Shown: positions 10,372 to 39,759 of the stretch, one piece after another
How the letters are laid out: every line of letters begins with the position of its first letter
How positions within the stretch are numbered: position 1 is the first letter of the stretch
Assembly: GCA_011322365.1 (NCBI GenBank)
Contig: DRNA01000142.1
Coordinates: 1 to 42,822 of the forward strand
Reading direction: 5' to 3'
DNA length: 42,822 bases
From: Aeromonadales bacterium
GTDB taxonomy: Bacteria; Pseudomonadota; Gammaproteobacteria; Enterobacterales; GCA-002770795
Notes under the pieces: model-generated
The model's input: only the letters and a program-made list of their open reading frames with translations
Databases searched by the model: none
What the model was told of the DNA's origin: nothing
Translations under genes and position numbers: made by a program

Positions 10372-10920
10372 ATGAGTTTAAATAAGATTGCATCAGGACA
10401 AAATGTCCCAGAAGAAATTAACGTAATTATAGAAATCCCCGCCCACTCTGATCCAGTCAAATATGAAGTGGATAAAGATTCTGGAGCATTGTTTGTGGAT
10501 CGATTTATGTCAACTTGCATGCACTATCCATGTAATTACGGCTATGTTCCTCATTCTCTCTCGAATGATGGTGACCCGGTAGATGTGCTGGTGCCAACAC
10601 CTTATCCATTACAGGCAGGTTCGGTCATCCGTTGTCGACCCGTTGGTGTCTTGAATATGACGGATGAAAGTGGAGAAGATGCCAAGATTATTGCCGTGCC
10701 TGCAGATAGTCTAAGCCGGGTTTACCGGGGTATTAATGAAGCCAGCGAACTTAATCAACTCTTGCTCGATCAAATTGTGCACTTTTTTGAACATTATAAA
10801 GATCTTGAACCCAGTAAATGGGTTAAAATAATCGGCTGGGCAGATGCAGCGGCCGCAAAAAAAGAAATTGTAGATAGTATCCAACGATACGAAAATATCA
10901 CTGAGAAGCCTGCTTTTTAA
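10372..10920 (+). CDS. ppa: Soluble family I inorganic pyrophosphatase
   Basis: [55 protein letters not shown] at 10300-10305. Confidence 0.97.
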
Positions 10921-15290: not shown

Positions 15291-15436
15291 ACTATTCAGA
15301 AATACAACAATAACTTTATTAATCATATAGTTAATGTGACATTTCCAATAAATTAACAAGGAATTGAAAGCGTGTAATTGACCAAAAACTGGTCTAAATG
15401 GTAGTTTATACCCATGATACCTGAAGATGCAGGACT

Positions 15437-16444
15437 TCAGGTAACATGGGTATAAGAGCCCCTGACCAAAGTCAGTGCCTGCTGCACGATTTCGATACCC
15501 GCACCTTCCCTGAAAGCCTGTTGGCTTAAATGACGACGCCATAATTTGGCTCCATAGCACCCCTGAAACAAACCGAGCAGGTGACGGGTCATGGTAGATA
15601 ATTTAACGCCTTGCGATAATTGCTGTTCCATATAAGGAAAGAAGCTTTCTATAATCTGCATTCGTGTCAACAAAGGCTTATCAGGATTCAACAAATGGTG
15701 TTCAATTTCAGCCAGCAGATAAGGTTTCTGGTAAGCCGCACGACCAATCATAACCCCATCAACAAATTGCAGGTGTTGCTCAATTTGATCAAGGGTTGTC
15801 ACACCACCATTTATTATAATTTCCAACTGAGGAAAATCACGTTTCAGTCGGTAGACTCTCTCATAATCCAGTTCTGGCACTTCCCGGTTCTGTTTAGGGC
15901 TTAAGCCCTGTAACCAGGCTTTGCGTGCATGGAGAGTAAAACTCCTGCATCCTGCAGCAGATACCTGTGCAATAAAGTCACACAAAAATTCATAACTGTC
16001 CAGATCATCAATACCAATACGCGTTTTGACGGTAACTTCCACTGCACTATTCTGCCGCATCCTGTCAATACATTCGGCAACTAACTGAGGTTTCGCCATC
16101 AAACAGGCACCAAAGGCTCCGGATTGCACTCGATCACTCGGACAACCCACGTTCAGGTTAACCTCGTCATAATGAAATCCATTAGCTACCTCACAGGCAG
16201 CAGCCAACTGCTCTGGATCAGAGCCTCCCAACTGTAAAGCCACAGGCTGTTCAGCCGGCTCATTTTGCAGCAAAATATGCTTATTACCCAGCACGATAGC
16301 GGCTGAAGTCACCATCTCTGTATACAACAAAATGGAATCACTCATCAAACGATGAAAATGCCGACAATGCCGATCTGTCCAGTCCATCATAGGAGCGACA
16401 GAAATGGTACGTTTAGTGGAATTAGGATGTATCATCGTTTTCAT
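15437..16444 (-). CDS. dusA: tRNA dihydrouridine(20/20a) synthase
   Basis: [64 protein letters not shown]. Confidence 0.97.
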
Positions 16445-18453: not shown

Positions 18454-18738
18454 TTATTTATACTCTTTAATCTGTCTTTCTAAATTTTTGTCATATTCAG
18501 ATTTTGGTACATTATTTTTTAAATGACACCGACTCTCAATTTTTTCAGGTTCCGTTTTTTTACTCTCATCATAAATGGTGATTTCCTGGGTCACCTGTAA
18601 ATCACCATTACAATCCATAGGACTTCCATAAGCACGCTCCATACGCTCAACGTCCTGATTTGACATGCATCCCGATAGCAGCACCCCTACTACCAGCAAT
18701 AGTTGTTTAACCATTATCCTGCTCTTTAACATAAACAT
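18454..18738 (-). CDS. Small hypothetical lipoprotein
   Basis: Hydrophobic stretch ending in the lipobox LSGC, with two further Cys; co-oriented 31 bp after batD. Confidence 0.7.
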   Translation of the reverse strand: MFMLKSRIMVKQLLLVVGVLLSGCMSNQDVERMERAYGSPMDCNGDLQVTQEITIYDESKKTEPEKIESRCHLKNNVPKSEYDKNLERQIKEYK

Positions 18739-20587: not shown

Positions 20588-22521
20588 TGTTTTTCTCCTG
20601 TATTTCTGGGTCGTTTACTACTGTTTTTATATTGATATAAAAATTTTCGCTTCCACAATAAAGATGGGTCATCCGGTATTCTTCTAAGCCATTGCTTTTT
20701 CTCTTCATCTTTTTCATTCGGTTTCATTTTTCTGGCTTGAGCAGCCAACTTCTGTTTCTCTTCCTCTGACTTTTGTTGTTTCTGTTTCGACTGCTGTCGA
20801 TTTTTTTGTTTTTTCTGTTCTTTTTTCTGCTGCTCTTTATCTTTATTTTCTAATTCCTTTCGCTTTTTTTCCTGTTGCTGACGCTTTTTTCTTTCTTCAT
20901 CAGACATTTTCTGCTGTTGACTGTCAGCATTCTTTTTATCCTTGTCTTTCTGCTTTTCATTCTGATTGTTTTTAGAAGATTTCTGTTTTTTATCTTTCTT
21001 CTGTTTGTTTTTCTGGTCTTTATTCTTTTTCTTGTCCTTGTTGTCTTTGGAGTTCTCACCCTTTCCATTTTTATCTTTTGACTGTTTTTTATTATCTTTC
21101 TGATTTTTTTTATTATCTTTTTTGTTCTTTTTGTTTTTCTGCTGCTTCTTTTTCTGTTGCTCCAGCAATTTCTTGTTATAAACAGCGTCTTCATTATTAA
21201 CATCAAGTTTAATAGCTTTCTCATAGGAAGCTATAGCTTCATCAATCTTACCCAGGCGTGCCAGTATATTACCTCGATTGTACCAGTCATCCGACGTTTT
21301 CAAATCTTTAGAATCCTGCAACGCCTGCTCATAGTTTCCACTTTTATATTCAGCAGCCTGCTTCCATTTTGGCTCAGTGAATAATTTGGTGGATTCCTCA
21401 TAGTTACCTTTGTCAAATTTTTGCTTGGCAATCTGATTTTTGTTCAAAAACAATTCCTCAAACTCAGATGCTTTTGCATTTTGAGTGTGCAGAAATGGAA
21501 CGACTAATAATAACGCCAGGGCTTTGTAATTCATTTGTTTTTTTCTGAAAATTAATGCTATAAACAACAGAGATGCCAATACAAACCATGGCCCTTCCTG
21601 AACCCGACTATCAACCTTAAGATCGTCAGTAGTTTTTTTAATAGAATTTACCGTTTCATCAAACAATCTGGATAATGCTTCAACATCCGAATTGTCAGAC
21701 TTCATTTCATAAAACAGACCACCACCAGAATGAGCAACAGCCTTCATCTTATCTGGATTTATCTTTGCTATGACCATTTGACCACGCTGATTAGTAATAA
21801 ATGAACCCCTATAAGGAACAGGTGCCCCCTGTTTGGTACCTATAGCTAAAACAGAAACCAGATAACCTTTATTCCGGGCCGTTTGAGCAGCTTTTAAATC
21901 AACATCTCCATTGAGTTCATCTGTAACCAGTAAAATATTACCTTTAGGTTGATTGGCCTGTTTTAACAGATCAATCGCCTTGTCTATGGCTTCTTCTGGA
22001 TGGTTTCCCTGTACAGGCATAATGGAAGGAACCAATATGGGTAACTGTGCCAGAATAGTTTTAGTATCACCTGTTAACGGTGTAACTGTAAACGCTTCAC
22101 CTGCATAGACAATTAATGCTGTCATGCCTTCTTTTCGTTTTTTTAATATATCTTCAATTTTAAATTTAGCACGCTGAAGTCTGGATGGCTTTACATCCGT
22201 GGCCAGCATGGATCGTGACAAATCCAGTGCGATTACTAATGCTGATTCATTCACCAATGCCGGATTTTTATTTTCTTTCCAGCCAGGTCCGGCTAAAGCC
22301 GTGATTAATAACAAACCAGCTATTAATGTCATAATACTTTGCCAGATATTTTGACCCTTTGCTGGTTTTTCCAAAACAAATGGTAACAGTTTTTTATCAC
22401 ATACTTTCTCCCATTGGCTATGTCGAACAGTTTGATAAAAGCTGGTAAAAATAAACCAAACAAGGGCAATGATGGCAAGAAACCACCAGGGTCTTTCAAA
22501 AAAAAGATGAGTTAAGTTCAT
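20581..22521 (-). CDS. VWA + TPR protein (BatB/BatC-like fusion)
   Basis: MIDAS DLSRSM, PSRLQRAK, TPLTGD, LLVTD; TPR WYNRGNILARLGKIDEAIASYEKA; K/Q/N/D-rich linker; WLRRIPDDP tail. Confidence 0.9.
   Translation of the reverse strand: MNLTHLFFERPWWFLAIIALVWFIFTSFYQTVRHSQWEKVCDKKLLPFVLEKPAKGQNIWQSIMTLIAGLLLITALAGPGWKENKNPALVNESALVIALDLSRSMLATDVKPSRLQRAKFKIEDILKKRKEGMTALIVYAGEAFTVTPLTGDTKTILAQLPILVPSIMPVQGNHPEEAIDKAIDLLKQANQPKGNILLVTDELNGDVDLKAAQTARNKGYLVSVLAIGTKQGAPVPYRGSFITNQRGQMVIAKINPDKMKAVAHSGGGLFYEMKSDNSDVEALSRLFDETVNSIKKTTDDLKVDSRVQEGPWFVLASLLFIALIFRKKQMNYKALALLLVVPFLHTQNAKASEFEELFLNKNQIAKQKFDKGNYEESTKLFTEPKWKQAAEYKSGNYEQALQDSKDLKTSDDWYNRGNILARLGKIDEAIASYEKAIKLDVNNEDAVYNKKLLEQQKKKQQKNKKNKKDNKKNQKDNKKQSKDKNGKGENSKDNKDKKKNKDQKNKQKKDKKQKSSKNNQNEKQKDKDKKNADSQQQKMSDEERKKRQQQEKKRKELENKDKEQQKKEQKKQKNRQQSKQKQQKSEEEKQKLAAQARKMKPNEKDEEKKQWLRRIPDDPSLLWKRKFLYQYKNSSKRPRNTGEKQW
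20700..21165 (-). repeat. Low-complexity K/Q/N/D-rich coding segment
   Basis: Long T-rich tracts on the plus strand encoding QQKKKQQKNKKNKKDNKKNQKDNKK... Confidence 0.8.
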
Positions 22522-26147: not shown

Positions 26148-26840
26148 ATGAAAGTTTTATTAATTGAAGACGATAAAAATACCATTGATTTTATTCAGAA
26201 AGGCTTACATGAAGCCGGGCATAGTGTTGTTATCAGTGAAAATGGCAAAGAAGGTTTATTTCAGGCACTGGAACTTGAGTTTGATGTGATGGTTATCGAT
26301 CGTATGTTACCCGGCTTAGATGGATTATCCATTATTAGCACCATTCGCAATGCACATATCAAAACACCCATTATTATTCTCAGCGCGTTGAGTGACGTTA
26401 ATCAACGTGTCGAAGGACTCAAATCAGGTGCCGATGACTACCTCTCCAAACCTTTTGCTTTTTCTGAACTACTGGCTCGACTGGAAGTTTTAACTCGTCG
26501 GATTTTTGTTGAAGAACAACAAACTATCCTGACTATTGACGATCTGGAAATGGACCTGCTATCACATCAGGTAAAAAGGGCCGGAAAGGTCCTGGATCTG
26601 CAATCCAGAGAATATCGATTACTGGAATATTTACTCAAACATCAGGGACAGGTTGTTACCCGTACCATGCTGCTGGAAAATGTCTGGGATTATCATTTTG
26701 ATCCACAAACTAATATTATTGATGTACATATCAGTCGGTTGCGTGCCAAAGTTGATAAAGGCTTTGAAAACCCACTCATCCATACAGTTCGAGGTGCTGG
26801 TTATACCTTGCGTGTCGATGAAAAAAATGATGAGAGCTAA
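26148..26840 (+). CDS. OmpR/PhoB-family response regulator (CusR/IrlR-like)
   Basis: LLIEDD, DRMLPGLDG, GADDYLSKPF; winged helix TRTMLLENVWDYHFDPQTNIIDVHISRLR...TVRGAGY. Confidence 0.95.
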   Translation: MKVLLIEDDKNTIDFIQKGLHEAGHSVVISENGKEGLFQALELEFDVMVIDRMLPGLDGLSIISTIRNAHIKTPIIILSALSDVNQRVEGLKSGADDYLSKPFAFSELLARLEVLTRRIFVEEQQTILTIDDLEMDLLSHQVKRAGKVLDLQSREYRLLEYLLKHQGQVVTRTMLLENVWDYHFDPQTNIIDVHISRLRAKVDKGFENPLIHTVRGAGYTLRVDEKNDES

Positions 26841-26843
26841 CTG

Positions 26844-28232
26844 ATGAAATTATTTTCCAGCAATAGCTTTAAACTGGCACTATTATATCTACTGATATTT
26901 TCTTCATCCGTTTTTTTGCTGATCAGTTATTTTTATCAATCAACTTTAGGATTTCTTGAAGCCGAAACCGATACTACCATTGAAATAGAAATTCAGGGAC
27001 TGGCGGAACAATATCAAAAACGAGGCCTGAATGAACTGATAGATATTATTCAACAACGTTTGAAAAGAGGCCCTGTCACCCAGTCAATTTATTTACTGAC
27101 CGATTCCGAAAAAAAAATTATCGTCGGTAATTTGAGTGCCTGGCCAGAAAATGCCACACTGAAAAATGGTTGGCTTAATTTCAGTTTGCAGACACAGAAT
27201 CCCAACCTGGAGCAACATCAGGTAAGAGCAAAGCAATTCAGACTGCTTGGAAATTACTATTTAATTGTGGGTCGTGACATCCATGAGCTGGCAGAAACCA
27301 AACAACTGATGTTTGATGCTCTCTTATGGGGCCTTTCCCTAACACTGATTTTAGGTTTATTGGGTGGCTATATACTTACTCGGAAAATATTGGGTAAAGT
27401 TGCCCGCCTGGATGATAGCTGCCGTACTATTATTGAAGGTCAGTTAACAAAACGCGTTCCTCGGGATTTTTCAAATGATGAATTTGATTCTCTGGCAGAA
27501 ACCATTAACTTAATGTTGGATAAAATTAATCAGCTAATGATCGGCATCACGCAGGTAACAGATAATATTGCTCATGATCTCCGTACACCTTTATCCAGAC
27601 TGAAGCAATCACTTGATTCGGCGTTGAACGACCAACTGGATAAGGATGCCCGACAGCAACTGATTGCTACCAGTATGGATGAAGCAGATAACCTCATCAC
27701 TACATTTAATGCATTATTAAATATTGCCTATGTTGAAAATACTGATAAGCAAATTGAGTTAACAGAGGTGGATCTGGCTCTCATATTAGGTGATGTGTAT
27801 GAACTTTACTATCCCCTTGCAGAAAATAAAAATCAACAATTTATTCTTCATATACAGGAAAATATTTCTTTCTTAATCTTATCTGAACACAACCTGTTAT
27901 TTCAGGCATTGACTAACTTAATTGACAATGCGATTAAATTCACACCCGACAATGGCATTATCACGATTAAACTAAGCCAACAGAACAATCAGTTCATTTT
28001 AATTCTATCCGATAATGGCTGTGGCATTCCTGAGGAAGATATTGATCGGGTTTTCAATCGATTTTTCCGTTCAGATAATAGCAGAACCTTGCCCGGAACC
28101 GGTCTTGGCCTGAGCCTGGTTGCTGCGGTTTGTAAACGCCTTCATATTCAACTCTCTCTGGAAAATCTTAATCCAGGTCTAAAAGTTAAACTGGTTTTTT
28201 CTGAATTAAAGCCCTTTAATTTGGAAAAATAA
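26844..28232 (+). CDS. HAMP-containing sensor histidine kinase
   Basis: Two TMs, HAMP, H-box IAHDLRTPL, N-box NLIDNAIKF, DNGCGI, GTGLGLS. Confidence 0.95.
   Translation: MKLFSSNSFKLALLYLLIFSSSVFLLISYFYQSTLGFLEAETDTTIEIEIQGLAEQYQKRGLNELIDIIQQRLKRGPVTQSIYLLTDSEKKIIVGNLSAWPENATLKNGWLNFSLQTQNPNLEQHQVRAKQFRLLGNYYLIVGRDIHELAETKQLMFDALLWGLSLTLILGLLGGYILTRKILGKVARLDDSCRTIIEGQLTKRVPRDFSNDEFDSLAETINLMLDKINQLMIGITQVTDNIAHDLRTPLSRLKQSLDSALNDQLDKDARQQLIATSMDEADNLITTFNALLNIAYVENTDKQIELTEVDLALILGDVYELYYPLAENKNQQFILHIQENISFLILSEHNLLFQALTNLIDNAIKFTPDNGIITIKLSQQNNQFILILSDNGCGIPEEDIDRVFNRFFRSDNSRTLPGTGLGLSLVAAVCKRLHIQLSLENLNPGLKVKLVFSELKPFNLEK
28144..28199 (+). repeat. Direct repeat copy 1 (attL-like), inside the 3' end of the kinase gene
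   Basis: ATATTCAACTCTCTCTGGAAAATCTTAATCCAGG (34 bp) is identical to 35769-35802; 52/56 identity overall. Confidence 0.95.
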
Positions 28233-28334
28233 GCAAAGATTTACTTTTCGTACACCGTCCACCGTTGTCCGCTACAAAAACCGTACACTTTTATTGCTAT
28301 ATTCTCATCAAGCATAAGGCGTTATTTTATTATT

Positions 28335-28380
28335 TATCAATGGGTTAAAATTATCCACGAGTAATGGCATAAAACTTGCT
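28335..28380 (+). promoter_or_regulatory. Sigma54 promoter with IHF site for the exporter operon
   Basis: TGGCAT-AAAAC-TTGCT at 28365-28380; perfect IHF consensus TATCAATGGGTTA at 28335-28347; candidate enhancer TGTCCG-N9-CGTACA at about 28267-28287. Confidence 0.85.
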
Positions 28381-28421
28381 CTGTTAGTTACATCAGCTAC
28401 GTTAGTCTTTGGTTAAATATA

Positions 28422-29693
28422 ATGATTCAGGATACATCGTCTCAGGATGTGATTTTAGATAATCATAATTTAAAATTCTCAATTAATAAGATTCTCATCC
28501 TCCTTTCAATATTGAGTCTGGTTATTATATTCCTTTTTAAAGGATTTTCTAACTGGTTAGCTTCAGATCGTACCGTAGCTAAAGCTCGTATTCAGATAGC
28601 CACGGTAAAACGAGGTCAATTTACTCGAGACATCGCTTTACAAGGGATTATTGTGGCGGCCAACAGCCCTAAATTATATGCGCCAGCCATTGGTAATATT
28701 ACACTCCTGGCTAAACCGGGAGAATTTGTTAAAAAAGGCGATCTGGTCGCTGTTTTGAATAGCCCGGAGCTGACAAATCGTCTTCAGCAACAACAGGCAA
28801 AACTTGATAGTCTTGAGATTGAGTTAGAGCGTAAAAAAATAAATACTAAAAAGGAAAAAATAAAGTCCAGGCAGAAAATTCAACTTGAAAAAGTTGTTCT
28901 TGATGCGGCAGAACGCGAAATGAGACGTGCTGAAAAATCAATCAAAATCAAGGCCATCAGTTTACTGGATTATGAAAAAGCGATTGATGATTTAAAGCGC
29001 TCTAAATTAAAACATACCTTTGCCATAGAACAGGCTGCACTGGAAAATGAGAATCTGGCATTTGAAATTAAAACAGCTGAATTTGAAAAAAATCAATATG
29101 CGCTATTGGTTGATAATACCTCAAGGTTGGTGAAAGAATTAAAGATGCTGGCTCCTGTTTCAGGTATTGTGGGTTCCTGGTCTGTTGAACAGAAATCTGC
29201 GGTGAGTATTAACCAACCATTACTCACCATTGTAGACCTGACACAATTTGAAGTAGAAATTGATATTCCTGAAAATTACGCAGATAAAATAGGTCTCGGT
29301 ATGCCGGTTTATGTGCAATATAATCAGCAAAAGTACCCTGCCAAAATTTCAACCATATCTCCCGAAGTGAAACAGAATATTGTAAAAGCAAGAGCTAAAT
29401 TTACCGCCACCCCACCCCCTGGTATTAAACAGAATCAACGTGTTTATAGCCAGGTTATTTTAGAAGAAAAAAATAATGTCTTATTTTTGCCCAGAGGTTC
29501 GTTTGTACAGCATCATAATGGACGTAAAATATTTGTGGTAAAAAACAATATTGCGCTACTCAGAGACATCCAGACTGGTTCCAGTAGCATTGATAAAATT
29601 GAAGTGATATCAGGACTCAATGCAGGAGAGCAGGTCATTATTTCTAATACGGATTTTGTTAAAAATGCTTCCACATTAACCATCAAAGAATAA
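28422..29693 (+). CDS. Periplasmic adaptor / membrane fusion protein (HlyD/MacA-like)
   Basis: N-terminal TM, KPGEFVKKGDLVA, long coiled coil, APVSGIV, IEVISGLNAGEQVII. Confidence 0.92.
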   Translation: MIQDTSSQDVILDNHNLKFSINKILILLSILSLVIIFLFKGFSNWLASDRTVAKARIQIATVKRGQFTRDIALQGIIVAANSPKLYAPAIGNITLLAKPGEFVKKGDLVAVLNSPELTNRLQQQQAKLDSLEIELERKKINTKKEKIKSRQKIQLEKVVLDAAEREMRRAEKSIKIKAISLLDYEKAIDDLKRSKLKHTFAIEQAALENENLAFEIKTAEFEKNQYALLVDNTSRLVKELKMLAPVSGIVGSWSVEQKSAVSINQPLLTIVDLTQFEVEIDIPENYADKIGLGMPVYVQYNQQKYPAKISTISPEVKQNIVKARAKFTATPPPGIKQNQRVYSQVILEEKNNVLFLPRGSFVQHHNGRKIFVVKNNIALLRDIQTGSSSIDKIEVISGLNAGEQVIISNTDFVKNASTLTIKE

Positions 29694-29716
29694 ATATGAT
29701 AACAATAGGTGAACCC

Positions 29717-30418
29717 ATGTTAAAAATGACACATATCAAAAAAGTATTCAGAACGGATCTGGTCGAAACCCACGCACTAAGGGATTTCAGCCTGGAAGTC
29801 AAAGAAGGAGAATTTGTCGCCATTACCGGCCCTTCCGGTTCTGGAAAAACAACCCTTTTAAATATTACCGGAATGCTGGATACTTTTGATGGCGGTTGTT
29901 ATCTTCTGGATGAACAAGATGTCAGCCAGCTTAATGATAAACAACGTTCCAGGCTACGCAATGAAAAAATTGGCTTTATTTTCCAGAGCTTTAATTTAAT
30001 TCCTGATCTGAATGTTTTTGATAATGTGGATGTACCCTTACGTTATCGGGGTTTTAATCATAAGCAGAGAAAACAACGCATTGAAGAAGTTCTGGAAAAA
30101 GTAGGGCTGATTGCAAGGCAAAAACATTTACCCTCACAGCTTTCAGGTGGTCAGCAACAAAGAGTAGCCATTGCCAGAGCATTAGCAGGCTCTCCTCGAT
30201 TTTTACTCGCCGATGAACCCACCGGCAACCTTGATTCTTTAATGGCCCGCCAGGTGATGCAATTATTAGAACAGATAAACCAGCAGGGTACGACCATTAT
30301 AATGGTCACTCACGATGGCGAACTTGCCAGAAGAACGCAACGTAATATCCATATTGTTGATGGCGAAGTCACCGATTATGAAACCCTGCAACCTGTTCTT
30401 GAAACCTCTGAGGCTTAG
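29717..30418 (+). CDS. ABC transporter ATP-binding protein (MacB/LolD-like)
   Basis: GPSGSGKTT, GFIFQSFNL, LSGGQQQRVAIARA, ADEPTGNLD, VTHD. Start placed at ATG 29717. Confidence 0.96.
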   Translation: MLKMTHIKKVFRTDLVETHALRDFSLEVKEGEFVAITGPSGSGKTTLLNITGMLDTFDGGCYLLDEQDVSQLNDKQRSRLRNEKIGFIFQSFNLIPDLNVFDNVDVPLRYRGFNHKQRKQRIEEVLEKVGLIARQKHLPSQLSGGQQQRVAIARALAGSPRFLLADEPTGNLDSLMARQVMQLLEQINQQGTTIIMVTHDGELARRTQRNIHIVDGEVTDYETLQPVLETSEA

Positions 30419-30454
30419 GACTTCTACTCTCACACAGCCTCCCAGGAGAAAATT

Positions 30455-31771
30455 ATGTTTCGATATTATCTCAAACTTTCATGGTTAAGTATTAAACGAA
30501 CCCCCTTGCTCACCGCCTTGATGGTACTGGCCATTGGCCTCGGCATCGGCGTCAGTATGACCGTTATCACTGTGAACTTTCTTATGGATAGAGATCCCAT
30601 TCCAGAAAAAAGCCAGCAACTTTTTTCTGTACAGTTAAATAGTTATGGTAATGATAACTCTAATCCATGGACCAGCGATGGATTTCCTCTACAGATTACT
30701 TATCAGGATGCCATCAATATCCATCGATCAGCTATTCCAAGCCGACAAACTGCAAGCGTCAGAACGGGGTTTTCCCTCATCCCAAATAAATCAGGACTTA
30801 CACCCTTTATGACTTCGGCTCGAGCCATCTATAGCGATTTTTTCAGTATGTTTAATATTTCTTTTTTATATGGTAGCCATTGGGATAAAAATATTGATAG
30901 TCATCCACGAGATATGGTGGTACTGAGTAAAAACATAAATGACAAGTTATTTAATGGCAAAAACAGTGTTGGTAAAACCGTTAATCTGGAATCCCATATT
31001 TATACTATCGTAGGTGTGATTGATAGTTGGGAACCTACACCTAAATTTTATGATCTGAATAATGGCAATTTTAATTCCCCTGAAGATATTTTTATTCCGT
31101 TTTCATTGTTACCTGTACATGAATTACTGAGTTGGGGTAATACCAATGGTTGGAAAACCGAAAAAATTGATAGTTATCAGGCTCGACTTGATTCTGAACT
31201 GGCCTGGATCCAGTACTGGGTTGAACTACAAACCCCGCAGCAAAAACAAAACTATAAAAACTGGCTATCGGGTTATATTAGTGAACAAAAAAAACTGGGT
31301 CGATTTGAAAATAAAAAAGCGGGCGCCGCTATCAGAGACGTAAAACAATGGCTTGACTATAATGAAGTGGTATCAAAAGACAACCGTGTGTTAGTGGGCT
31401 TATCGTTTATGTTTCTGGCCGTTTGTATGATTAATACTCTGGGGTTATTGTTAGCTAAATTTTTACGCCGGGCACCCGAAGTCGGGGTAAGACGCGCATT
31501 GGGTGCCAGCCGTCGTACTATTTTTATACAACATCTGGTGGATGTCGGCCTTATTGGCTTTGCCGGTGGATTACTCGGATTAGCCATTGGGCAACTGGGT
31601 TTATTAGGCGTGAAATCACTGTATCAGGGTTATCACAATCTGGTGCAAATGGATTTTAGCCTGATCCTGCTGGCCATTTTTATAGCTCTAATCTCCAGCT
31701 TAATTGCTGGCCTTTATCCCGCCTGGCTGATCTGTAGAACCAATCCCTCGGTTTATTTGAAGTCACAATAA
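30455..31771 (+). CDS. ABC transporter permease (MacB/FtsX-type)
   Basis: 1+3 TM topology with a large periplasmic domain; EVGVRRALGAS, GLYPAW; AGGAG RBS. Confidence 0.93.
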   Translation: MFRYYLKLSWLSIKRTPLLTALMVLAIGLGIGVSMTVITVNFLMDRDPIPEKSQQLFSVQLNSYGNDNSNPWTSDGFPLQITYQDAINIHRSAIPSRQTASVRTGFSLIPNKSGLTPFMTSARAIYSDFFSMFNISFLYGSHWDKNIDSHPRDMVVLSKNINDKLFNGKNSVGKTVNLESHIYTIVGVIDSWEPTPKFYDLNNGNFNSPEDIFIPFSLLPVHELLSWGNTNGWKTEKIDSYQARLDSELAWIQYWVELQTPQQKQNYKNWLSGYISEQKKLGRFENKKAGAAIRDVKQWLDYNEVVSKDNRVLVGLSFMFLAVCMINTLGLLLAKFLRRAPEVGVRRALGASRRTIFIQHLVDVGLIGFAGGLLGLAIGQLGLLGVKSLYQGYHNLVQMDFSLILLAIFIALISSLIAGLYPAWLICRTNPSVYLKSQ

Positions 31772-31827
31772 TGCTTGAAGCCAAATAATAAAACCTAATG
31801 AAACCCATTTAATTCCAGGAGAAATAC

Positions 31828-33036
31828 ATGCTACATATTAAGCCCATATTCAATACCCTGTTAAGGCATAAAAGTAGTTCTTTACTCACCATCTTACAAA
31901 TTGCACTCACATTTGCAGTCGTGGTAAATGCCATCAGTATTATTCAACAACGCCTCTCAGATATGCATCGACAAACCGGGCTGGCAGAAAACCAGCTACT
32001 GGCAGTAAACATTAACCCCTTTGGTAAGGACTATAATTTAAAGCAAAATTTTATAGAAGACAGAGCATTAGTCCGGGCCATTCCCGGTGTTATTGACGCG
32101 ACATTAATTGATCAGCTCCCTTTGTCAGGTGGCGGTAATTCTTCCTCCATGGCGGCAACACAAGAGAAATTTGATAACAAAGATAATATCAATGCGGGGA
32201 TCTTTTTAGGCGATAATCATCTGGTGCATACTTTGGGAGTAAAAATTATCGCTGGCAGAGATTTTAGCGCTGAAGAAGTCCTTTATAGCACAAAAGCTGA
32301 AAACCCGAGGGTCATATTAATCACCCAGACAGTGGCGGACAAATTATTTCCAAAAGGTAATGCGTTGGGGAAAATGGTCTATTTGTGGGGTTTCAATGTG
32401 AGAGTTATCGGTATTATTGAAAAAATGGCTGGCCCCTGGGTTCATTCTTCAAGGTATGATGACAATGTGTTGATGCCCATCCTTTATCTTGGCAGGAATT
32501 TCAGACGCTTATTGATCCGGGTGAAAACCAGTCAGATGAATGAATTATTAGGTACTATTGAAAAAAAACTGCTTGCCAGAAATCCTAATCGTGTCATTGA
32601 TGGCATCCGTTCCATTAAAGAATATAAAACTGGCAGCTACAGTGGTGATAGGGCGATGTCAAAAATACTCTGGTATGTTGTTGCACTTCTCATCATAATT
32701 ACTGCATTAGGCATTGTCGGCATCAGCAGCTTTAATGTGAGTCAACGTATTAAACAAATTGGCACAAGACGTGCTCTGGGTGCAACAACTACTGACATCT
32801 TAAGCTACTTTATTACTGAAAATATCATTATCAGCGTGATCGGTGTATTGCTGGGGTCTGTTATCGCAGTTGCTTTTAATATTTATATTGTGAATACCTT
32901 TAAACTCTCGGCTATCGAATGGTACTATTTCCCTGTTGGTATTTTTATTATGCTAATTACGGGAATTGTTGCCGTCTGGGCACCTGCGGTAAAAGCATCC
33001 AGAATTTCACCTGCTGTAGCCACACAAAGCGTGTAA
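31828..33036 (+). CDS. ABC transporter permease (MacB/FtsX-type)
   Basis: GRDFS, QIGTRRALGAT, PAVKASRISPAVAT; AGGAG RBS. Confidence 0.93.
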   Translation: MLHIKPIFNTLLRHKSSSLLTILQIALTFAVVVNAISIIQQRLSDMHRQTGLAENQLLAVNINPFGKDYNLKQNFIEDRALVRAIPGVIDATLIDQLPLSGGGNSSSMAATQEKFDNKDNINAGIFLGDNHLVHTLGVKIIAGRDFSAEEVLYSTKAENPRVILITQTVADKLFPKGNALGKMVYLWGFNVRVIGIIEKMAGPWVHSSRYDDNVLMPILYLGRNFRRLLIRVKTSQMNELLGTIEKKLLARNPNRVIDGIRSIKEYKTGSYSGDRAMSKILWYVVALLIIITALGIVGISSFNVSQRIKQIGTRRALGATTTDILSYFITENIIISVIGVLLGSVIAVAFNIYIVNTFKLSAIEWYYFPVGIFIMLITGIVAVWAPAVKASRISPAVATQSV

Positions 33037-33041
33037 AAAGT

Positions 33042-34388
33042 ATGAGCCAGATTTTATTAATTGATGATAACCAGGGTATAGCTAAAGCCTTAAAGGTTTT
33101 ATTTTCCCTGTATAATTTATCCATGCAACACGCTGAGACCCCGGAACAGGGGCTTGTTTTGTTAGAGACGACAGAAATTGATCTGGTCATTCAGGATATG
33201 AATTTTTCTGATGACACTACCTCAGGCGAAGAAGGAAAAATACTTTTTAATCAGATCCATAACCAATATCCTGATACCCCCATTATTTTACTCACGGCAT
33301 GGGGAAAAATTGAAATGGCCGTTGAATTAGTCAAACAGGGGGCGGCTGACTATATCACCAAACCCTGGGACGACATCAAACTTGTCAATACACTCACAAA
33401 TTTATTGGAACTTGGCCAGCTCCGTCGGCAAACACATTCCATATTAAAACATAAGTCTGATCAGGCAAAAAAGCTGGCCAAAAATTTTGATCTCTGTGAC
33501 ACTATTTTTGATAGCGAAGCCATGTTACAAAATTTAACCATTGCCACCCAGATAGCCCATGCGGATATTCCAGTATTGATCACCGGCCCCAATGGTAGCG
33601 GTAAAGAAAAAATAGCGGAAGTTATTCAGGTTAATTCTTCCGTATGTAAACAACCCTTTATCAAAGTTAATATTGGCGCCCTGCCCGTTGATTTACTGGA
33701 AGCTGAATTATTTGGTGTAGAAGCCGGAGCCTTTACCGGTGCACAAAAAAAACGCATTGGCCGATTTGAAGCCGCTGATGGTGGCACCTTGTTTTTAGAT
33801 GAAATAGGTAACCTGCCTTTAAATGGTCAGATAAAATTATTAAGAGTGATTCAAACGGGTGAATTCGAACGCCTGGGAAGTTCAAAAACCCGCAAAGTCA
33901 CGGTCAGAATTATCAGTGCGACCAATGCTGATTTAAAGGAAGAAATCGAAAAGGGAAATTTTCGTGAAGATTTATATTATCGACTCAATGTCATAGAAAT
34001 CAATATTGTACCTTTATGTGATCGTAAGGATGATATCTTGCCACTGGCCTTACATTTTATGCCAGATGATTTTGTGTTAACCCGAGATGCTGAAAGAGAT
34101 CTTATGAATCATTCGTGGCCAGGAAATGTCAGAGAATTACAAAATGTGATCCAGCGAGCCAGTCTGCTATCGAATGACAAAAAATTATCAGCTGATAAAT
34201 TGGGATTACTTCCTGTAAAAATAGCATCTAATAACAGTTCCAGAATAGAACCGGATAAACAAATGCTGATTGAAACACTTGCAAAAAATAAGCATAATAT
34301 TTCTCAAACAGCCAAACAACTTGGATTAAGCAGGCAATCTCTATATCGTAGATTAGACAAATATGACATAGCTAAAGGACACCTCTGA
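33042..34388 (+). CDS. Sigma54-dependent response regulator (NtrC family)
   Basis: REC (ILLIDD, QDMNF, KPW); AAA+ [40 protein letters not shown]; Fis HTH. True start is ATG 33042. Confidence 0.95.
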
Positions 34389-34413
34389 AGAAAAGATTGA
34401 AAAAAGGTATCAC

Positions 34414-35769
34414 TTGGAAAAACCAATAGTCAAAAAAATTACACTTGAAGCACAACTAAACATGCTGTTAGTTCTCGCTATTCTTGGCACTTTGCTCACT
34501 GTTTGCATCCTATATTACTTTGTTAATGACATGCTGCTGAGTATACTTTTTACTGTGGCTTTAGTACTCCCTGCAAATGTTATTATACTTCATTATTATA
34601 TGTCGCCCATCAATCGTATGCTTGCAGCACTATACTCGGGAATGAGCAATTTTCTGGATAATGATTTTAGTATTTCTTTGGCAAAAAAACGACAGGATGA
34701 ATTGGGCGATCTGATTGAAATATATAATCGTGTTGGTACTACTTTAAGGAATGAGCGTGTACACCTCTATCAGCGCGAATTACTGTTAGATACCGTTATG
34801 CAATCAACCCCTCTGAGCCTGGTACTCACCGATGATTCTGGAAAAATTATCTACAATAATAGTTCAGCAAGACAATTATTTAATCATGGGAGAAGTTTGA
34901 ATGGCTTTAACTTTACATCATTGCTGGATACTTTACCAAAGCCTTTTAAACAATCTTTAAAATCTGGTCTCAGTGGTCTTTTTACGGTTATCGAAAACAA
35001 TGAAAATGAAACCTATTATCTAACACAAAATAAATTCCTGTTAAATGGTAAACAACACCTACTTTATTTATTTAAACGCCTTACTAAAGAAATAAATCGA
35101 CAGGAGGTCAATACCTGGAAAAAAGTCATCCGGCTAATCAGTCACGAATTAAATAACTCGTTAGCTCCTATTTCTTCTTTGTCCCATTCCGGTAAATTAT
35201 TATCGACTCGTCTCCAGGTACTACAATTACAGGATATTTTTGAAACTATAGAAGAACGATCGAATTATCTAAAAAGATTTATTGAAGGTTACGCTGAATA
35301 CGCTCGACTACCGAAACCTGTTATAGAAAAAATCAATGCTTATTCATTTTTCTCTAGCCTGCAAAACCTGCATAGTTTCACTTTACAATGCCAGCATGAC
35401 AATGCATCTATTCATTGCGATCCAGCTCAATTGCAACAGGTTATGATCAATTTACTTAAAAATTCTCATGAATCTGGCTCTGATACTCAGGCTATTCTAG
35501 TCGAAGTGAGAAACCATGCTGATAGCACAGAAATTAAAATAAAAGATCGTGGCTGTGGCATGCCAGAGAACACGATTAGAAATGCTTTATTACCCTTTTA
35601 TTCAACTAAGGCCCGAGGCAGCGGGCTTGGCTTGCCCCTTTGTAGAGAAATCATTGAGGCCCATGGGGGGAAAATATTAATTCAAAACCGGAAAAACAAA
35701 GGGCTTGGTATTACGCTGTTTTTACCTAATATAAAATCTGATTTTACAACTGCATCTGATCCGATCTAA
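34414..35769 (+). CDS. Sensor histidine kinase (NtrY/NtrB-like: TM-HAMP-PAS-HisKA-HATPase)
   Basis: ISHELNNSLAPI, INLLKNS, DRGCGM, PFYSTKARGSGLGL. Its stop codon touches repeat copy 2. Confidence 0.93.
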   Translation: MEKPIVKKITLEAQLNMLLVLAILGTLLTVCILYYFVNDMLLSILFTVALVLPANVIILHYYMSPINRMLAALYSGMSNFLDNDFSISLAKKRQDELGDLIEIYNRVGTTLRNERVHLYQRELLLDTVMQSTPLSLVLTDDSGKIIYNNSSARQLFNHGRSLNGFNFTSLLDTLPKPFKQSLKSGLSGLFTVIENNENETYYLTQNKFLLNGKQHLLYLFKRLTKEINRQEVNTWKKVIRLISHELNNSLAPISSLSHSGKLLSTRLQVLQLQDIFETIEERSNYLKRFIEGYAEYARLPKPVIEKINAYSFFSSLQNLHSFTLQCQHDNASIHCDPAQLQQVMINLLKNSHESGSDTQAILVEVRNHADSTEIKIKDRGCGMPENTIRNALLPFYSTKARGSGLGLPLCREIIEAHGGKILIQNRKNKGLGITLFLPNIKSDFTTASDPI

Positions 35770-35824
35770 TATTCAACTCTCTCTGGAAAATCTTAATCCA
35801 GGCCTGAAGGTGAAACTGGTTTTT
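35769..35824 (+). repeat. Direct repeat copy 2 (attR-like): orphan 3' fragment of the 26844-28232 kinase gene
   Basis: Translates IQLSLENLNPGLKVKLVF, identical to copy 1; all 4 mismatches are synonymous third positions. Confidence 0.95.
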
Positions 35825-36004
35825 CGGGCAGCCTCTCATATTTATTTAATCTATATCACCGCCTTCCTAATAGTTCTATTATCTGCAAAAATCACCTTTT
35901 CAGGTAATTGATAAACACTATCGTTATCTTTACTATTATTGGCAATAACTTCACTATATAGTGACGAGTTTAAATTTTAAATACAAACTTTTCAGGAGGT
36001 TACA

Positions 36005-37075
36005 ATGCGATCTATCTGTTTAAATTTTATACTGATTTTTATTTTGATTTTTTCTGCTGATGTATCGGCCAAAAAGAAAGGTTCGGGCGCCTATATTGAA
36101 GTTAAGTCTCCCAGGGTTCATAACTTTGCCATTCGAGTTCTTAATGATGGAAAGAAATATGTCGCGGTAAAAAATTCTTATTTACCGGTGAAGTTTGACG
36201 TACTATTAAAGGCTCGTTGTGGTAATAGATACCACCAGGACAGTGCCTATTTTTCTGTTGCAGGTACTTCCACTAATATTCCTGTGAACAAAAAAAATAA
36301 AACCTTTAGTAAAAATTTCAGAAAATACAGTTTTTCTGTTCCATATGCTGATCCAAAATATTCCATACCTCCCATTAAAGCCTGTAATACTGCTTTAACC
36401 CAGGCAGCTTTGTCAAAGGGAAAGACAAAATCGGCGTTATTACAATCTGGCTGGTCAAAAAATATTTATGAAACGTATTTTTATAGAGGCACATTTAAAT
36501 TAACCTGCAAAGAAAACAGGAAAGGGCTTTTTGATGAACCTAAATACTATAGCGCTTCAGCAAATCTTGGTGTTGCTTATGAATGTTTGAAAAGTGCCAG
36601 TGCCAATAAACCTAAACCCCATCCAAAGCCCAAAAGAGCAAAAACACCTTTTAAGGTATCCAAAGCTACCCTTGCTGTCGATAAACCTTCCTATCATGGT
36701 AAATGTCCAGTCAATTTAAAATTTACCGCCACTTTTACTTCTACTAAAAAGGGGAAAGCTAAATACCGTATTCTCGGTTCAGGGGGTAGTCTTTCTCCAG
36801 TGAAAACGGTAACTTTCAAAAAAGCTGGCAAAGTGCAGATCCCTTTCGTTATTAAAAAAGGGAAAAGCCAAAAATCCTCGGCTATTACGGGTATGAATAT
36901 TACAACGAGCAAAAAGAAATCCACTCTGAATAATCTGACATCACAACCGAGCAATGTATTCGCTGGCTGGTTTCAGATACAGATGCTTTCACCTAATAAA
37001 ATGAAATCAAACAAACAGACCTTTAAGGTATTCTGTCAGGATCATCCCAAACGTTATAAAAAAATATCGGGCTAA
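36005..37075 (+). CDS. Secreted, Lys-rich, Cys-containing hypothetical protein (two beta-rich domains)
   Basis: AGGAGG RBS, signal peptide ending VSA, six Cys in the mature part, KPKPHPKPK linker. Confidence 0.8.
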   Translation: MRSICLNFILIFILIFSADVSAKKKGSGAYIEVKSPRVHNFAIRVLNDGKKYVAVKNSYLPVKFDVLLKARCGNRYHQDSAYFSVAGTSTNIPVNKKNKTFSKNFRKYSFSVPYADPKYSIPPIKACNTALTQAALSKGKTKSALLQSGWSKNIYETYFYRGTFKLTCKENRKGLFDEPKYYSASANLGVAYECLKSASANKPKPHPKPKRAKTPFKVSKATLAVDKPSYHGKCPVNLKFTATFTSTKKGKAKYRILGSGGSLSPVKTVTFKKAGKVQIPFVIKKGKSQKSSAITGMNITTSKKKSTLNNLTSQPSNVFAGWFQIQMLSPNKMKSNKQTFKVFCQDHPKRYKKISG

Positions 37076-37106
37076 GCATAAACGAAACACTGGCAATCAT
37101 ACCGGC

Positions 37107-37146
37107 AAACGCGATATACTACTTGCATAAGTAGTATATCGCGTTT
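37107..37146. repeat. Perfect 18-bp inverted repeat with a 4-nt spacer (terminator or operator)
   Basis: AAACGCGATATACTACTT-GCAT-AAGTAGTATATCGCGTTT. Confidence 0.9.
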
Positions 37147-37234
37147 AAATATGTCAATGTCAAAAAAATCTGAATTTACTAAAACTCCCTGTTTATCATC
37201 AGGTTATATCAACTTCAGTCAGGAAACTATCCGT

Positions 37235-37681
37235 ATGTTTCCCTGTTTACCCGTTATTGATACTATGCCTTTGCCACTTCCCTTTTTCCAAAGCACAGTT
37301 TCTGCCGGTTTTCCCAGTCCGGCGGATGATTATATTGAGCGTTATCTGGATCTGAATGAATTACTTATCAATAACCCCTCAAGTACTTTTCTGGCTCGAG
37401 CCAGGGGGGATTCCATGTTGGAAATTGGTATCCATAACGGTGATATTCTTATCGTTGATCGTGCTGTGGAAGTCCGTCATAAGGATATTGTAGTCGCCGC
37501 ACTCGATGGAGAACTTGTGTGTAAAATACTCGATAAATATCAGCAATGCTTACTGCCAGCAAACCCAAACTATGATGCTATCCCCATCAGCAACCTCAGT
37601 GATTTTATGGTGGAAGGTGTGGTGATCGCTTCTATTCGCTGCCACCGTCTGGTGCATGAATTAGCTCGAAATCCTTCTTAG
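37235..37681 (+). CDS. umuD: Translesion polymerase V subunit UmuD (S24 autoprotease)
   Basis: VSAGFPSPADDY cleavage region, catalytic GDSM Ser and ELVCK Lys. Start is probably ATG 37235 (AGGA upstream) rather than 37151. Confidence 0.93.
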   Translation: MFPCLPVIDTMPLPLPFFQSTVSAGFPSPADDYIERYLDLNELLINNPSSTFLARARGDSMLEIGIHNGDILIVDRAVEVRHKDIVVAALDGELVCKILDKYQQCLLPANPNYDAIPISNLSDFMVEGVVIASIRCHRLVHELARNPS

Positions 37682-37684
37682 ATC

Positions 37685-38971
37685 ATGTTTGCACTGGTCG
37701 ATTGCGATAGTTTTTTTGCCAGCTGTGAACAAATTTTCCGTCCGGATCTGCGCGGCAAACCCATTGTTGTGCTTTCGAATAATGATGGCTGCATTGTAGC
37801 CAGAAATCGCCAGGCTAAAGCATTACAGGTGCCAGATCTGGTGGCCTATTTTAAAGTGAAACAATTATTGGAAAAACAACAGATAGAGGTGTTTTCCAGT
37901 AATTATGAACTCTATGGTGATATCTCAGCTCGGGTTATGGACCGGCTACAGGATTTTGCTACTGATATGGAAATCTATTCCATAGATGAAGCCTTTTTAT
38001 TATTACCCGATCTAAATATCGATGATACTAATGCTTCACAAAATAGCAATGCCTACTGGCAATATGGCCGTACCATAAAGAAAACCATCTGGAAAGACAT
38101 TCGTGTACCTGTTTCTGTAGGTATTGGAGCCACTAAAACCCTGGCAAAACTGGCCTCTCACATTGCCAAACAATCGCTACGTTGTCAGGGGGTTTGCGCT
38201 ATCGTAAACCTTCCACGCTGGCAAAAAGTATTCAGCAGAATTCCGGTAAAAAAAATCTGGGGTATCGGCAGAAAATATGCCAGCCGACTACAGGCTGATC
38301 ACATTTATTCAGTATGGCAGTTACTCAATTGTAATCCTAAAACCATACAACGACGATACAGCGTGAACCTGGAAAGAACAGTAGAAGAACTTAACGGCAT
38401 TCCCTGCTATGGTCTGGAAAAAGAAATACCTGATAAGCAACAGATTATTTCATCTCGCTCCTTTGGCAAAAAAATCACTGAATTAGAGCCATTACAGCAA
38501 GCCATCAGCCAGTATGCCAGCCGGGCCTGTCAAAAATTACGCACGCAAAACGCCCTTGCCACTACAATTAATGTTTTCATCCAGACCAGTCGTTTTGAAG
38601 AAGACTATTATGCTCCCGCTCTGTCAATAAAATTACCCTGCCCAACCAATGACACCCGTACCATTATCCACTTCGCCAGGCAGGCAGTCTGGCAACTGTA
38701 TAAACCCCATCGACGTTATGCAAAAGCCGGAGTCGCTATCACAGAAATCATATCTCGCACACCACAACAACTGGATTTTCTTGCGCCGGTACAAAGCTCT
38801 CATTCTGAAAATTTAATGCAGGTCTTGGATACTATCAACCAACGCTCCGGAAGTGGTACTGCTTTTTTTTTAGCACAGGGTATACAACAAAAATGGAAAA
38901 TGAATCGCTTTATGAAATCACCCTCCTATACTACCCGCTGGCTGGATTTACCCTGTATTATGATTAGATAA
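37685..38971 (+). CDS. umuC: Y-family DNA polymerase V subunit UmuC
   Basis: MFALVDC..FFASCE, VVLSNNDGC, SSNYELYGD, YSIDEAF, SRSFG; C-terminal WKMNRFMKSPSYTTRW (DUF4113). Confidence 0.95.
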   Translation: MFALVDCDSFFASCEQIFRPDLRGKPIVVLSNNDGCIVARNRQAKALQVPDLVAYFKVKQLLEKQQIEVFSSNYELYGDISARVMDRLQDFATDMEIYSIDEAFLLLPDLNIDDTNASQNSNAYWQYGRTIKKTIWKDIRVPVSVGIGATKTLAKLASHIAKQSLRCQGVCAIVNLPRWQKVFSRIPVKKIWGIGRKYASRLQADHIYSVWQLLNCNPKTIQRRYSVNLERTVEELNGIPCYGLEKEIPDKQQIISSRSFGKKITELEPLQQAISQYASRACQKLRTQNALATTINVFIQTSRFEEDYYAPALSIKLPCPTNDTRTIIHFARQAVWQLYKPHRRYAKAGVAITEIISRTPQQLDFLAPVQSSHSENLMQVLDTINQRSGSGTAFFLAQGIQQKWKMNRFMKSPSYTTRWLDLPCIMIR

Positions 38972-38982
38972 TAAAAGAGTTT

Positions 38983-39759
38983 CTATTTTTTCTTCCTCTT
39001 CAACCACATATAAATTCCACTTAAAGATAGCAGGATCAGCAAAGCGGCAACAACATCTGCAAGATACTTACCGGATTTTTGTAAAATTCTGACACTGTGG
39101 ATATCTTGAATAACCCGTTCCCAGTTGAGAATATGACTTTGGTATTGGTGTGAAATCTGTTGCATAGTTTCAGCTGTAGGTTTCACTGGTTTTGACCAGG
39201 TGATCACCTTATTTTCCATTAGCGGGTGCCAATGCGTCAAGGTTGGATCCGCTTGCAGAATATCCGTACGAGTTTTAAGAAAAATATCATTACCAATCTG
39301 GCCCAAAGCTTCAATGTCAACATGACGACCATTAAATTCACTAATGGTATCAATTAGCTCACCGGATTCTGTAAACAATAAAACTTCATCTGAAGTTACA
39401 GCAATAATGCTCTCTGCGGTCGATATAGCCCCTCTTAATACTGCACTGTCTTTTTTTAGCAGGCTGTTATCAATATATAACTGATCATCAGCACTGACCA
39501 GTGTAATATCATTAACCATAAATAGCTGAATATTAGTTGGGGGGAGGACCCCGTAAACTGAAATTATCCAGGGTACACCCACCGGTTTTTTAGCCAGTTC
39601 CAGATCGTCAGCATGATTTAATAAAATGCCTGTAACTGCCAGAATAATAATAAAAATGGTGGCGGTAATCCCCAGATAACTATGCCACTTTCTGAACAGT
39701 TTAAATCGTCCATTTTTATTTTTTCCAGAGCGTTGGCGAGTTGTATGATGAGTATTCAT
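38983..39759 (-). CDS. PepSY-associated TM helix domain protein
   Basis: RKWHSYLG...AVTGILLNH, periplasmic beta-rich domain, QDIHS, LSLSGIYMW. Confidence 0.88.
   Translation of the reverse strand: MNTHHTTRQRSGKNKNGRFKLFRKWHSYLGITATIFIIILAVTGILLNHADDLELAKKPVGVPWIISVYGVLPPTNIQLFMVNDITLVSADDQLYIDNSLLKKDSAVLRGAISTAESIIAVTSDEVLLFTESGELIDTISEFNGRHVDIEALGQIGNDIFLKTRTDILQADPTLTHWHPLMENKVITWSKPVKPTAETMQQISHQYQSHILNWERVIQDIHSVRILQKSGKYLADVVAALLILLSLSGIYMWLKRKKK

Follow-up and report, generated by a model that had tools for sequence, protein, structure and literature searches.

A repeat-bounded exporter operon at the 3′ end of a sensor kinase gene, possibly one of two tandem insertions at a single codon

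Introduction

How did a 56-nt stretch from the end of a sensor histidine kinase gene come to stand twice on one contig, 7.6 kb apart, with a complete exporter operon between the copies? The question is raised by contig DRNA01000142.1 of an Aeromonadales bacterium assembly (GCA_011322365.1), of which a stretch of 42,822 nucleotides (hereafter the window; the features described between 26148 and 38971 lie on the forward strand) was analyzed computationally. The answer tentatively favored here is site-specific insertion into the 3′ end of the kinase gene, HK1, twice in tandem: the exporter block would resemble a cis-mobilizable element (CIME), and a block holding orf356 and umuDC would be the second insertion. 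The exporter operon itself was most likely moved passively, as an island, into a point where insertion recurs. An earlier note, made from the letters of this DNA alone, had taken the locus for an integrase-less cassette that entered the kinase gene once.

Anatomy of the repeat

The gene for HK1 (26844–28232; 462 aa; Pfam HAMP, HisKA, and HATPase_c) follows that of its partner, the OmpR-type response regulator RR1 (26148–26840; Pfam Response_reg and Trans_reg_C). Repeat search and codon comparison placed a 56-nt direct repeat at 28144–28199 (copy 1, attL-like, covering kinase residues I435–F452 at the predicted end of the ATP-binding domain) and at 35769–35824 (copy 2, an internal attachment-like site or a relic of a kinase end), with a start-to-start distance of 7625 nt and 52 of the 56 positions identical. 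Direct repeats of the attL/attR kind, overlapping the 3′ end of the target gene, were thereby found at both ends of the intervening block. This repeat is the longest of 20 direct-repeat families in the window, and an exact 24-nt piece of it occurs twice, versus no occurrence in 100 shuffles.

As the earlier note had seen, the first 34 nt of the repeat are identical and the next 22 contain four mismatches (28178, 28181, 28184, and 28187), each a synonymous change at a third codon position of the kinase frame. The probability of such a placement is 0.011 for four random positions among 56, and that of four mismatches falling in four consecutive codons is 0.004 among the 19 third positions; at all four, copy 1 carries A or T and copy 2 carries G or C. 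Twelve identical bases (AAACTGGTTTTT) follow the mismatches, after which similarity is lost abruptly and completely in both copies. Both translate to IQLSLENLNPGLKVKLVF and then diverge, also in keeping with the earlier description: copy 1 reads on through SELKPFNLEK to a stop codon, and copy 2 through RAASHIYLIYITAFLIVLLSAKITFSGN to a stop codon (RAASHIY...SGN). Direct comparison of the left flanks of the two copies found no obvious homology. Because the differences are confined to wobble positions, copy 2 descends from a kinase end that evolved as coding sequence under selection, rather than from a fresh target duplication undergoing decay.

A comparable arrangement is described for e14, inserted at icd in Escherichia coli: the icd reading frame continues into prophage DNA, the C-terminal fragment icdC is found at the opposite end, most changes in the substitute end are synonymous, and the gene end is exchanged upon excision (PMC13626634). 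An identical core, a bunched patch of wobble differences, and a shared abrupt right edge together form the pattern of a substitute gene end borne by an element.

Kinase tails in relatives

In a protein search with HK1, five of the 120 matches listed were 85–100% identical to it. HK1 residues 1–452 match database protein P0001, encoded on a 2789-base contig of another assembly, at 452 of 452 positions, and only the last 10 residues of HK1 are specific to the window; P0001 continues from KLVF to LSIP and ends. P0002 (433/452, 96%) ends in YSIP and P0003 (416/452, 92%) in LSIP, all three stopping four residues past KLVF or KLAF, and P0004 and P0005 (about 85–86% identical to HK1) end in HAYSD. 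Because the kinases with 100, 96, and 92% identity end in LSIP or YSIP, the short LSIP tail is the state of the species group and the tail in the window a derived one. By translation and comparison with these relatives, 28200–28232 is a putative substitute kinase tail (tail 1, SELKPFNLEK and a stop codon) with which the inserted block 1 would begin. The target frame is kept across this junction, the kinase being intact through F452 and then acquiring its new 10-residue tail and stop.

Three different continuations were observed past codon F452: relatives read LSIP or YSIP, copy 1 leads to SELKPFNLEK, and copy 2 leads to RAASHIY...; the point at which the relatives diverge is the same codon at which copies 1 and 2 part. 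HK1 alignments to solved kinases end at residue 434, ∼20 residues short of the end of the solved domains, and in 39 kinase homologues (38 from the database plus the window's own) the tails past a conserved PGL[KR]V...F block are variable in sequence and range from about 0 to 20 residues. On these two grounds, the repeat spans the end of the ATP-binding domain, its right edge coinciding with the end of conserved sequence.

At the far junction, where a displaced original gene end was sought, copy 2 leads into RAASHIY... and not into the LSIP or YSIP of the relatives. Since the relatives' tail is LSIP rather than RAASHIY, copy 2 with the sequence after it is a second junction and not the displaced ancestral end of the gene, so that the arrangement requires a minimum of two events at one nucleotide. 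The proposal of integration into the kinase 3′ end is supported in that the window state is derived, but its single event is not, since neither copy 2 nor the sequence after it is the displaced ancestral end. The empty site forecast with that proposal (kinase running straight into 35825 and beyond) was not seen, the relatives' tail being LSIP. Arrival of copy 2 together with the genes at 36005–38971, which the earlier note had named as speaking against its own account, comes close to the present result, in which copy 2 is a second junction at the same codon. That two independent random insertions should strike the same nucleotide is very unlikely.

A single event, in which one circular cassette entered an intact kinase gene and left copy 2 and the sequence from 35825 onward as the original gene end and downstream DNA, is thus improbable. 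The repeat pattern and the e14 precedent would suit it, and the insertion could have occurred in an unsampled strain in which the kinase had RAASHIY... as its end beforehand; however, the three closest relatives (100, 96, and 92%) end in LSIP or YSIP. Moreover, continuation 2 (35825–35911), which stands in the kinase frame at the start of block 2 and has no Pfam match, adds a 28-residue hydrophobic extension that exceeds the tails of the 39 listed homologues, and a protein search for this extension found no longer protein carrying it, a negative result of little weight.

The 2789-base contig, with its kinase of 100% identity up to F452 and a different tail, shows either heterogeneity of the population or assemblies that break exactly at this point, and would fit an assembly artefact in which strains, or an empty site and a separate molecule, were joined through the 34-nt core. 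Against such a chimera, current assemblers work with reads and final k-mers longer than an exact repeat of 34 nt, a junction can be assembled only if some molecule contains it, and the kinase frame is precisely kept at the left junction; an artefact of this kind is accordingly rated very unlikely.

The exporter operon between the copies

Six genes occupy the block between the copies. They encode an HlyD-family periplasmic adaptor (28422–29693; Pfam HlyD_3 and HlyD_D23, NCBIfam RND_mfp), an ATP-binding cassette (ABC) ATPase (29696–30418; Pfam ABC_tran), two MacB-type permeases (30455–31771 and 31828–33036; both Pfam MacB_PCD and FtsX), the NtrC-type sigma-54 activator RR2 with a receiver domain (33042–34388; Pfam Response_reg, Sigma54_activat, and HTH_8; start set at MSQILL..., the listed open reading frame [ORF] beginning at 32919), and the sensor kinase HK2 (34414–35769; Pfam HATPase_c). 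A motif scan placed a sigma-54-type promoter motif, TGGCAT-N5-TTGC, at 28365–28379, 42 nt upstream of the first of these genes, and matched it three times in the window versus 0.61 expected. The parts of a MacB-type ABC exporter under sigma-54 two-component control (adaptor, ATPase, permeases, NtrC-type regulator, kinase, and promoter) are thus all present, and no gene for an outer-membrane factor was found in the cassette. The last base of the HK2 stop codon is also the first of copy 2, and the length of the HK2 C-terminal tail is within the range of 38 homologues.

Because the same six genes stand in the same order in Pseudoalteromonas xiamenensis (NZ_CP099918.1), block 1 is exactly one conserved operon unit. 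The earlier view of a complete module running from enhancer and promoter to the last stop codon is borne out by the six-gene operon, the sigma-54 motif, and the position of the HK2 stop; the enhancer is a candidate only. It is a half-site, TGTCCGCT, at 28266–28273, proposed from alignment to TGTCCGC palindromes upstream of the homologous P. xiamenensis operon. In that genome (locus L049, 3362–3627) the upstream region has two palindromes built on TGTCCGC/GCGGACA, and 28240–28300 of the window has a single TGTCCGCT together with repeated CGTACAC and ACCGT words. Sites of the TGTCCGC/GCGGACA type are likely binding sites of this family of NtrC-type regulators.

The window operon shares this gene content with the MacB-type exporter operons of Pseudoalteromonas and Kangiellaceae that come with an NtrC-type system: nucleotide identity to the P. 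xiamenensis operon is ∼69% over the conserved parts, and HK2 is ∼60% identical to Aliikangiella proteins. Unlike the window, P. xiamenensis has ordinary neighbors around the operon, and the 14 kb examined there contain no repeat of a kinase end; the likeness lies in cargo, not in mobility. HK2 has one 100% match (P0122, on an 11,883-base contig) and then none above 69%, that is, one of the 120 matches listed at ≥70%. In a plasmid collection, block 1 showed operon-level homology in Pseudoalteromonas chromids only, and HK1 matched only kinases of <60% identity.

A tandem insertion and the points against it

Tandem site-specific insertion is the most economical account of these observations. The nucleotide directly past codon F452 would be a recurrent site-specific insertion point, and the window strain would carry two blocks in tandem, each opening with its own substitute kinase tail: block 1 (28200–35768), a sigma-54 operon that encodes a MacB-type ABC exporter along with its own regulators, and block 2 (35825 to at least 38971), comprising orf356 and umuDC. 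The kinase-end copy at 35769–35824 would then be an internal copy of the attachment site between the blocks. Block 2 would have gone in first, and block 1 would have followed into the regenerated site. Block 1 would be non-autonomous and CIME-like, mobile or lost only by means of a recombinase from elsewhere or of RecA acting on the 34-nt core, and its loss would leave the kinase joined to continuation 2. The steps that we infer are recombination at a specific site, the sequence in which the blocks entered, passage through a circular intermediate, and mobilization in trans or in cis.

Several observations weigh against this account. No match to recombinase, transposase, excisionase, or relaxase families was found among the ORFs scanned across the 42.8-kb window (Pfam and NCBIfam). 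An element-encoded integrase is thus missing from 28200–35768 and from the remainder of those ORFs, as the description of an integrase-less cassette had held, and the window offers no candidate enzyme and no partner in the form of an integrative and conjugative element (ICE) or an integrative and mobilizable element (IME). In GC content, GC content at third codon positions (GC3), and codon usage, both blocks match the flanks, and the host-like codon usage and GC3 of the cassette argue against a recent arrival from a distant donor. Tandem insertion predicts that block 2 closes on the right with a further repeat copy and the displaced ancestral gene end; a third copy of the repeat was found nowhere in the window, and neither was an LSIP-stop in a kinase context. 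The 34-nt core, which the earlier note had proposed to search for elsewhere, had no further copy in the window or in 49 loci retrieved from other genomes.

The comparison with relatives, all of it at the protein level, has the same bearing. A scan of genome contigs with HK1 returned 48 loci with distant kinases only (identity ≤48% over partial segments and ≤30% where most of the domain was covered), among them no orthologue and no empty site. In favor of the account, two observations suggest indirectly that relatives lack the exporter beside the kinase: HK1 has relatives at 96, 92, 86, and 85% identity, unlike HK2 with its single listed match at ≥70%, and none of the 120 listed HK2 homologues is on a contig equal in length to any of the six that carry the kinase orthologues P0001–P0006. 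The P0122 cluster, however, has five members at ≥90% identity, which means that close relatives may carry the cassette too.

The absence of matched mobility genes and the host-like composition would be at home in a recombination scar formed without any mobile element, an explanation that is possible if rather doubtful. Blocks from related strains would have been taken in through homologous recombination, with the kinase gene as anchor and an illegitimate join on the other side, or by replacement of a variable region, and copy 2 would be a truncated relic of a resident kinase allele or paralogue. Homology-facilitated illegitimate recombination is an established route; the lack of recombinase or transposase families among the ORFs scanned agrees with it, host-identical codon usage is expected of exchange within a lineage, wobble-only differences would derive copy 2 from a once-functional, diverged kinase allele, and tails past F452 vary freely in the homologues. 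A scar, however, would have to be preceded by one insertion in the donor (giving tail 1) and another in the recipient (giving continuation 2), both at the same nucleotide, with the joining event on top of these; it also leaves unexplained both the bunching of four mismatches in consecutive codons beside a 34-nt identical stretch (P about 0.004–0.02) and the left edge of copy 2, which coincides precisely with the stop codon closing a complete operon.

Comparison with known systems

Prophage e14 encodes its own integrase. The window resembles e14 and phage 21 at icd in that the proposed insertion is at the 3′ end of a protein gene, with a substitute end and with a fragment at the far junction. 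Unlike e14, the window has no matched recombinase family and its cargo is one operon; its substitute extends over no more than 22 nt and a new tail, and what comes after the fragment at the far junction is not the ancestral gene end.

CIMEs offer a second comparison. In streptococci, elements of this kind, 1.2–13 kb in size, adjoin ICEs or IMEs in tandem arrays at the 3′ ends of fda, rpsI, and rpmG and keep attachment-site repeats and cargo only, without recombination or transfer genes (PMC7563491). So described, CIMEs are matched by block 1 in that it is flanked by repeats, has no matched recombination or transfer genes, falls within the CIME size range at 7.6 kb, and would stand in tandem at the 3′ end of a protein gene; retention of attachment-type repeats and absence of recombination and transfer genes hold among the ORFs scanned. 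CIMEs in that description are decayed ICEs or IMEs beside a partner with a cognate integrase, whereas no partner, integrase, or ICE remnant was seen in the window. Neither an ICE or IME partner nor such an origin is indicated by any signature gene in the window, block 2 holding only orf356 and umuDC, and a partner beyond 42822 is possible. The locus further differs from the streptococcal CIMEs in its host, gammaproteobacterial by the names of the nearest homologues, and in its target, a sensor kinase. Islands of this sort, flanked by repeats, lacking a recombinase, and placed at the 3′ end of a protein gene, are already known as a kind; what the locus would add in detail is the choice of target, the operon carried, and a junction polymorphism with three continuations.

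The left junction

A palindrome scan located an imperfect palindrome at 28196–28229, with 16-nt arms (14 of 16 positions complementary) and a 2-nt spacer, formed from the last 4 nt of copy 1 and the whole substitute tail up to the stop codon. Four palindromes with 16-nt arms occur in the window, one of them exactly on the left junction, versus a mean of 0.1 sites over 20 shuffles. A role as an RNA hairpin or terminator was considered and rejected, the fold being weak (z −1.3) with no U-run after it. A relic origin of tail 1, from the gene that precedes the operon in P. xiamenensis, was also considered, but the two show no resemblance. The junction sequences look unlike integron attC, IS200/IS605, IS91, and Xer/dif-type sites.

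A bolder conjecture, and a long shot, is that the end of the kinase ATP-binding domain serves as an attachment site for recombinase-less operon cassettes, each bringing a wobble-recoded gene end and its own kinase tail and exchanged by a recombinase encoded elsewhere in the genome, with the left-junction palindrome as part of the site. Its logic would be like that of integrons or Xer-dependent modules, but inside a protein-coding gene.

Two further strong palindromes, also with 16-nt arms, were observed at 15411–15450 and 18574–18609 (15 and 14 matches, respectively). The former straddles the 3′ end of dusA (minus strand, 15437–16444), a gene whose 5′ end is a known integration hot spot.

Block 2 and the right side

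The first gene of block 2, orf356 (36005–37075), encodes a lysine-rich protein without Pfam or NCBIfam match, the neighbors of which in the Atlas are hypothetical proteins of Pseudomonadota and the N-terminus of which reads like a signal peptide. It is followed by umuD (37151–37681; Pfam Peptidase_S24) and umuC (37685–38971; Pfam IMS, IMS_C, and DUF4113). Palindrome and fold scans found a perfect palindrome at 37107–37146, with 16-nt arms and an 8-nt spacer (fold z −6.85), 5 nt before the start codon of umuD. A search of the window for the canonical LexA box of gammaproteobacteria (CTGT-N8-ACAG) found none, and the palindrome is a candidate non-canonical operator of umuDC.

Beyond umuDC lie convergent PepSY_TM, flavin mononucleotide (FMN)-binding, porin, and outer-membrane genes. 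The stop codons of umuC and of the convergent PepSY_TM gene are 11 nt apart (38969–38985), with no terminator-like hairpin between them, and the right side of block 2 may have a deletion junction in this interval. In the plasmid collection, block 2 had short umuC matches only, and the PepSY_TM protein matched nothing.

Remainder of the window

The rest of the window resembles ordinary chromosome, with pyrophosphate enzymes, dusA, pspA, an mscK-like channel gene, and a MoxR/BatA-D cluster. Scans of the window for tRNA genes and Rfam families returned none, and those for terminators and sigma-70 promoters gave no excess over shuffles. Three genes linked to pyrophosphate (PPi) fall within 11 kb: a PPi-dependent phosphofructokinase fragment (3–500), a membrane pyrophosphatase (8066–10060), and a soluble pyrophosphatase (10372–10920). 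A gene for an Hhe-type anti-phage helicase/nuclease (NCBIfam NF042953) is split into forward-strand ORFs at 1243–2598 and 2672–6736, which lie in different frames and cover profile positions 1–423 and 450–1797; it is either broken or affected by a frameshift or sequencing error near 2598–2672. At 20809–21159, six copies of a T/C-rich, imperfect 24-nt repeat lie inside a batB-like gene (minus strand), where they encode a low-complexity stretch, and a seventh copy occurs at 36036–36059.

Implications

If the blocks were joined by a recombination scar only, the locus would be an instance of ordinary strain-level mosaicism. It presents in any case a testable polymorphism, with three continuations past one codon in identical or near-identical kinases. 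If the site-specific reading is true, the 3′ end of a sensor kinase gene would join the list of attachment sites in protein genes, a whole regulated efflux operon would travel as a non-autonomous passenger, and gain or loss of that operon would alter the C-terminal tail of a resident signaling kinase.

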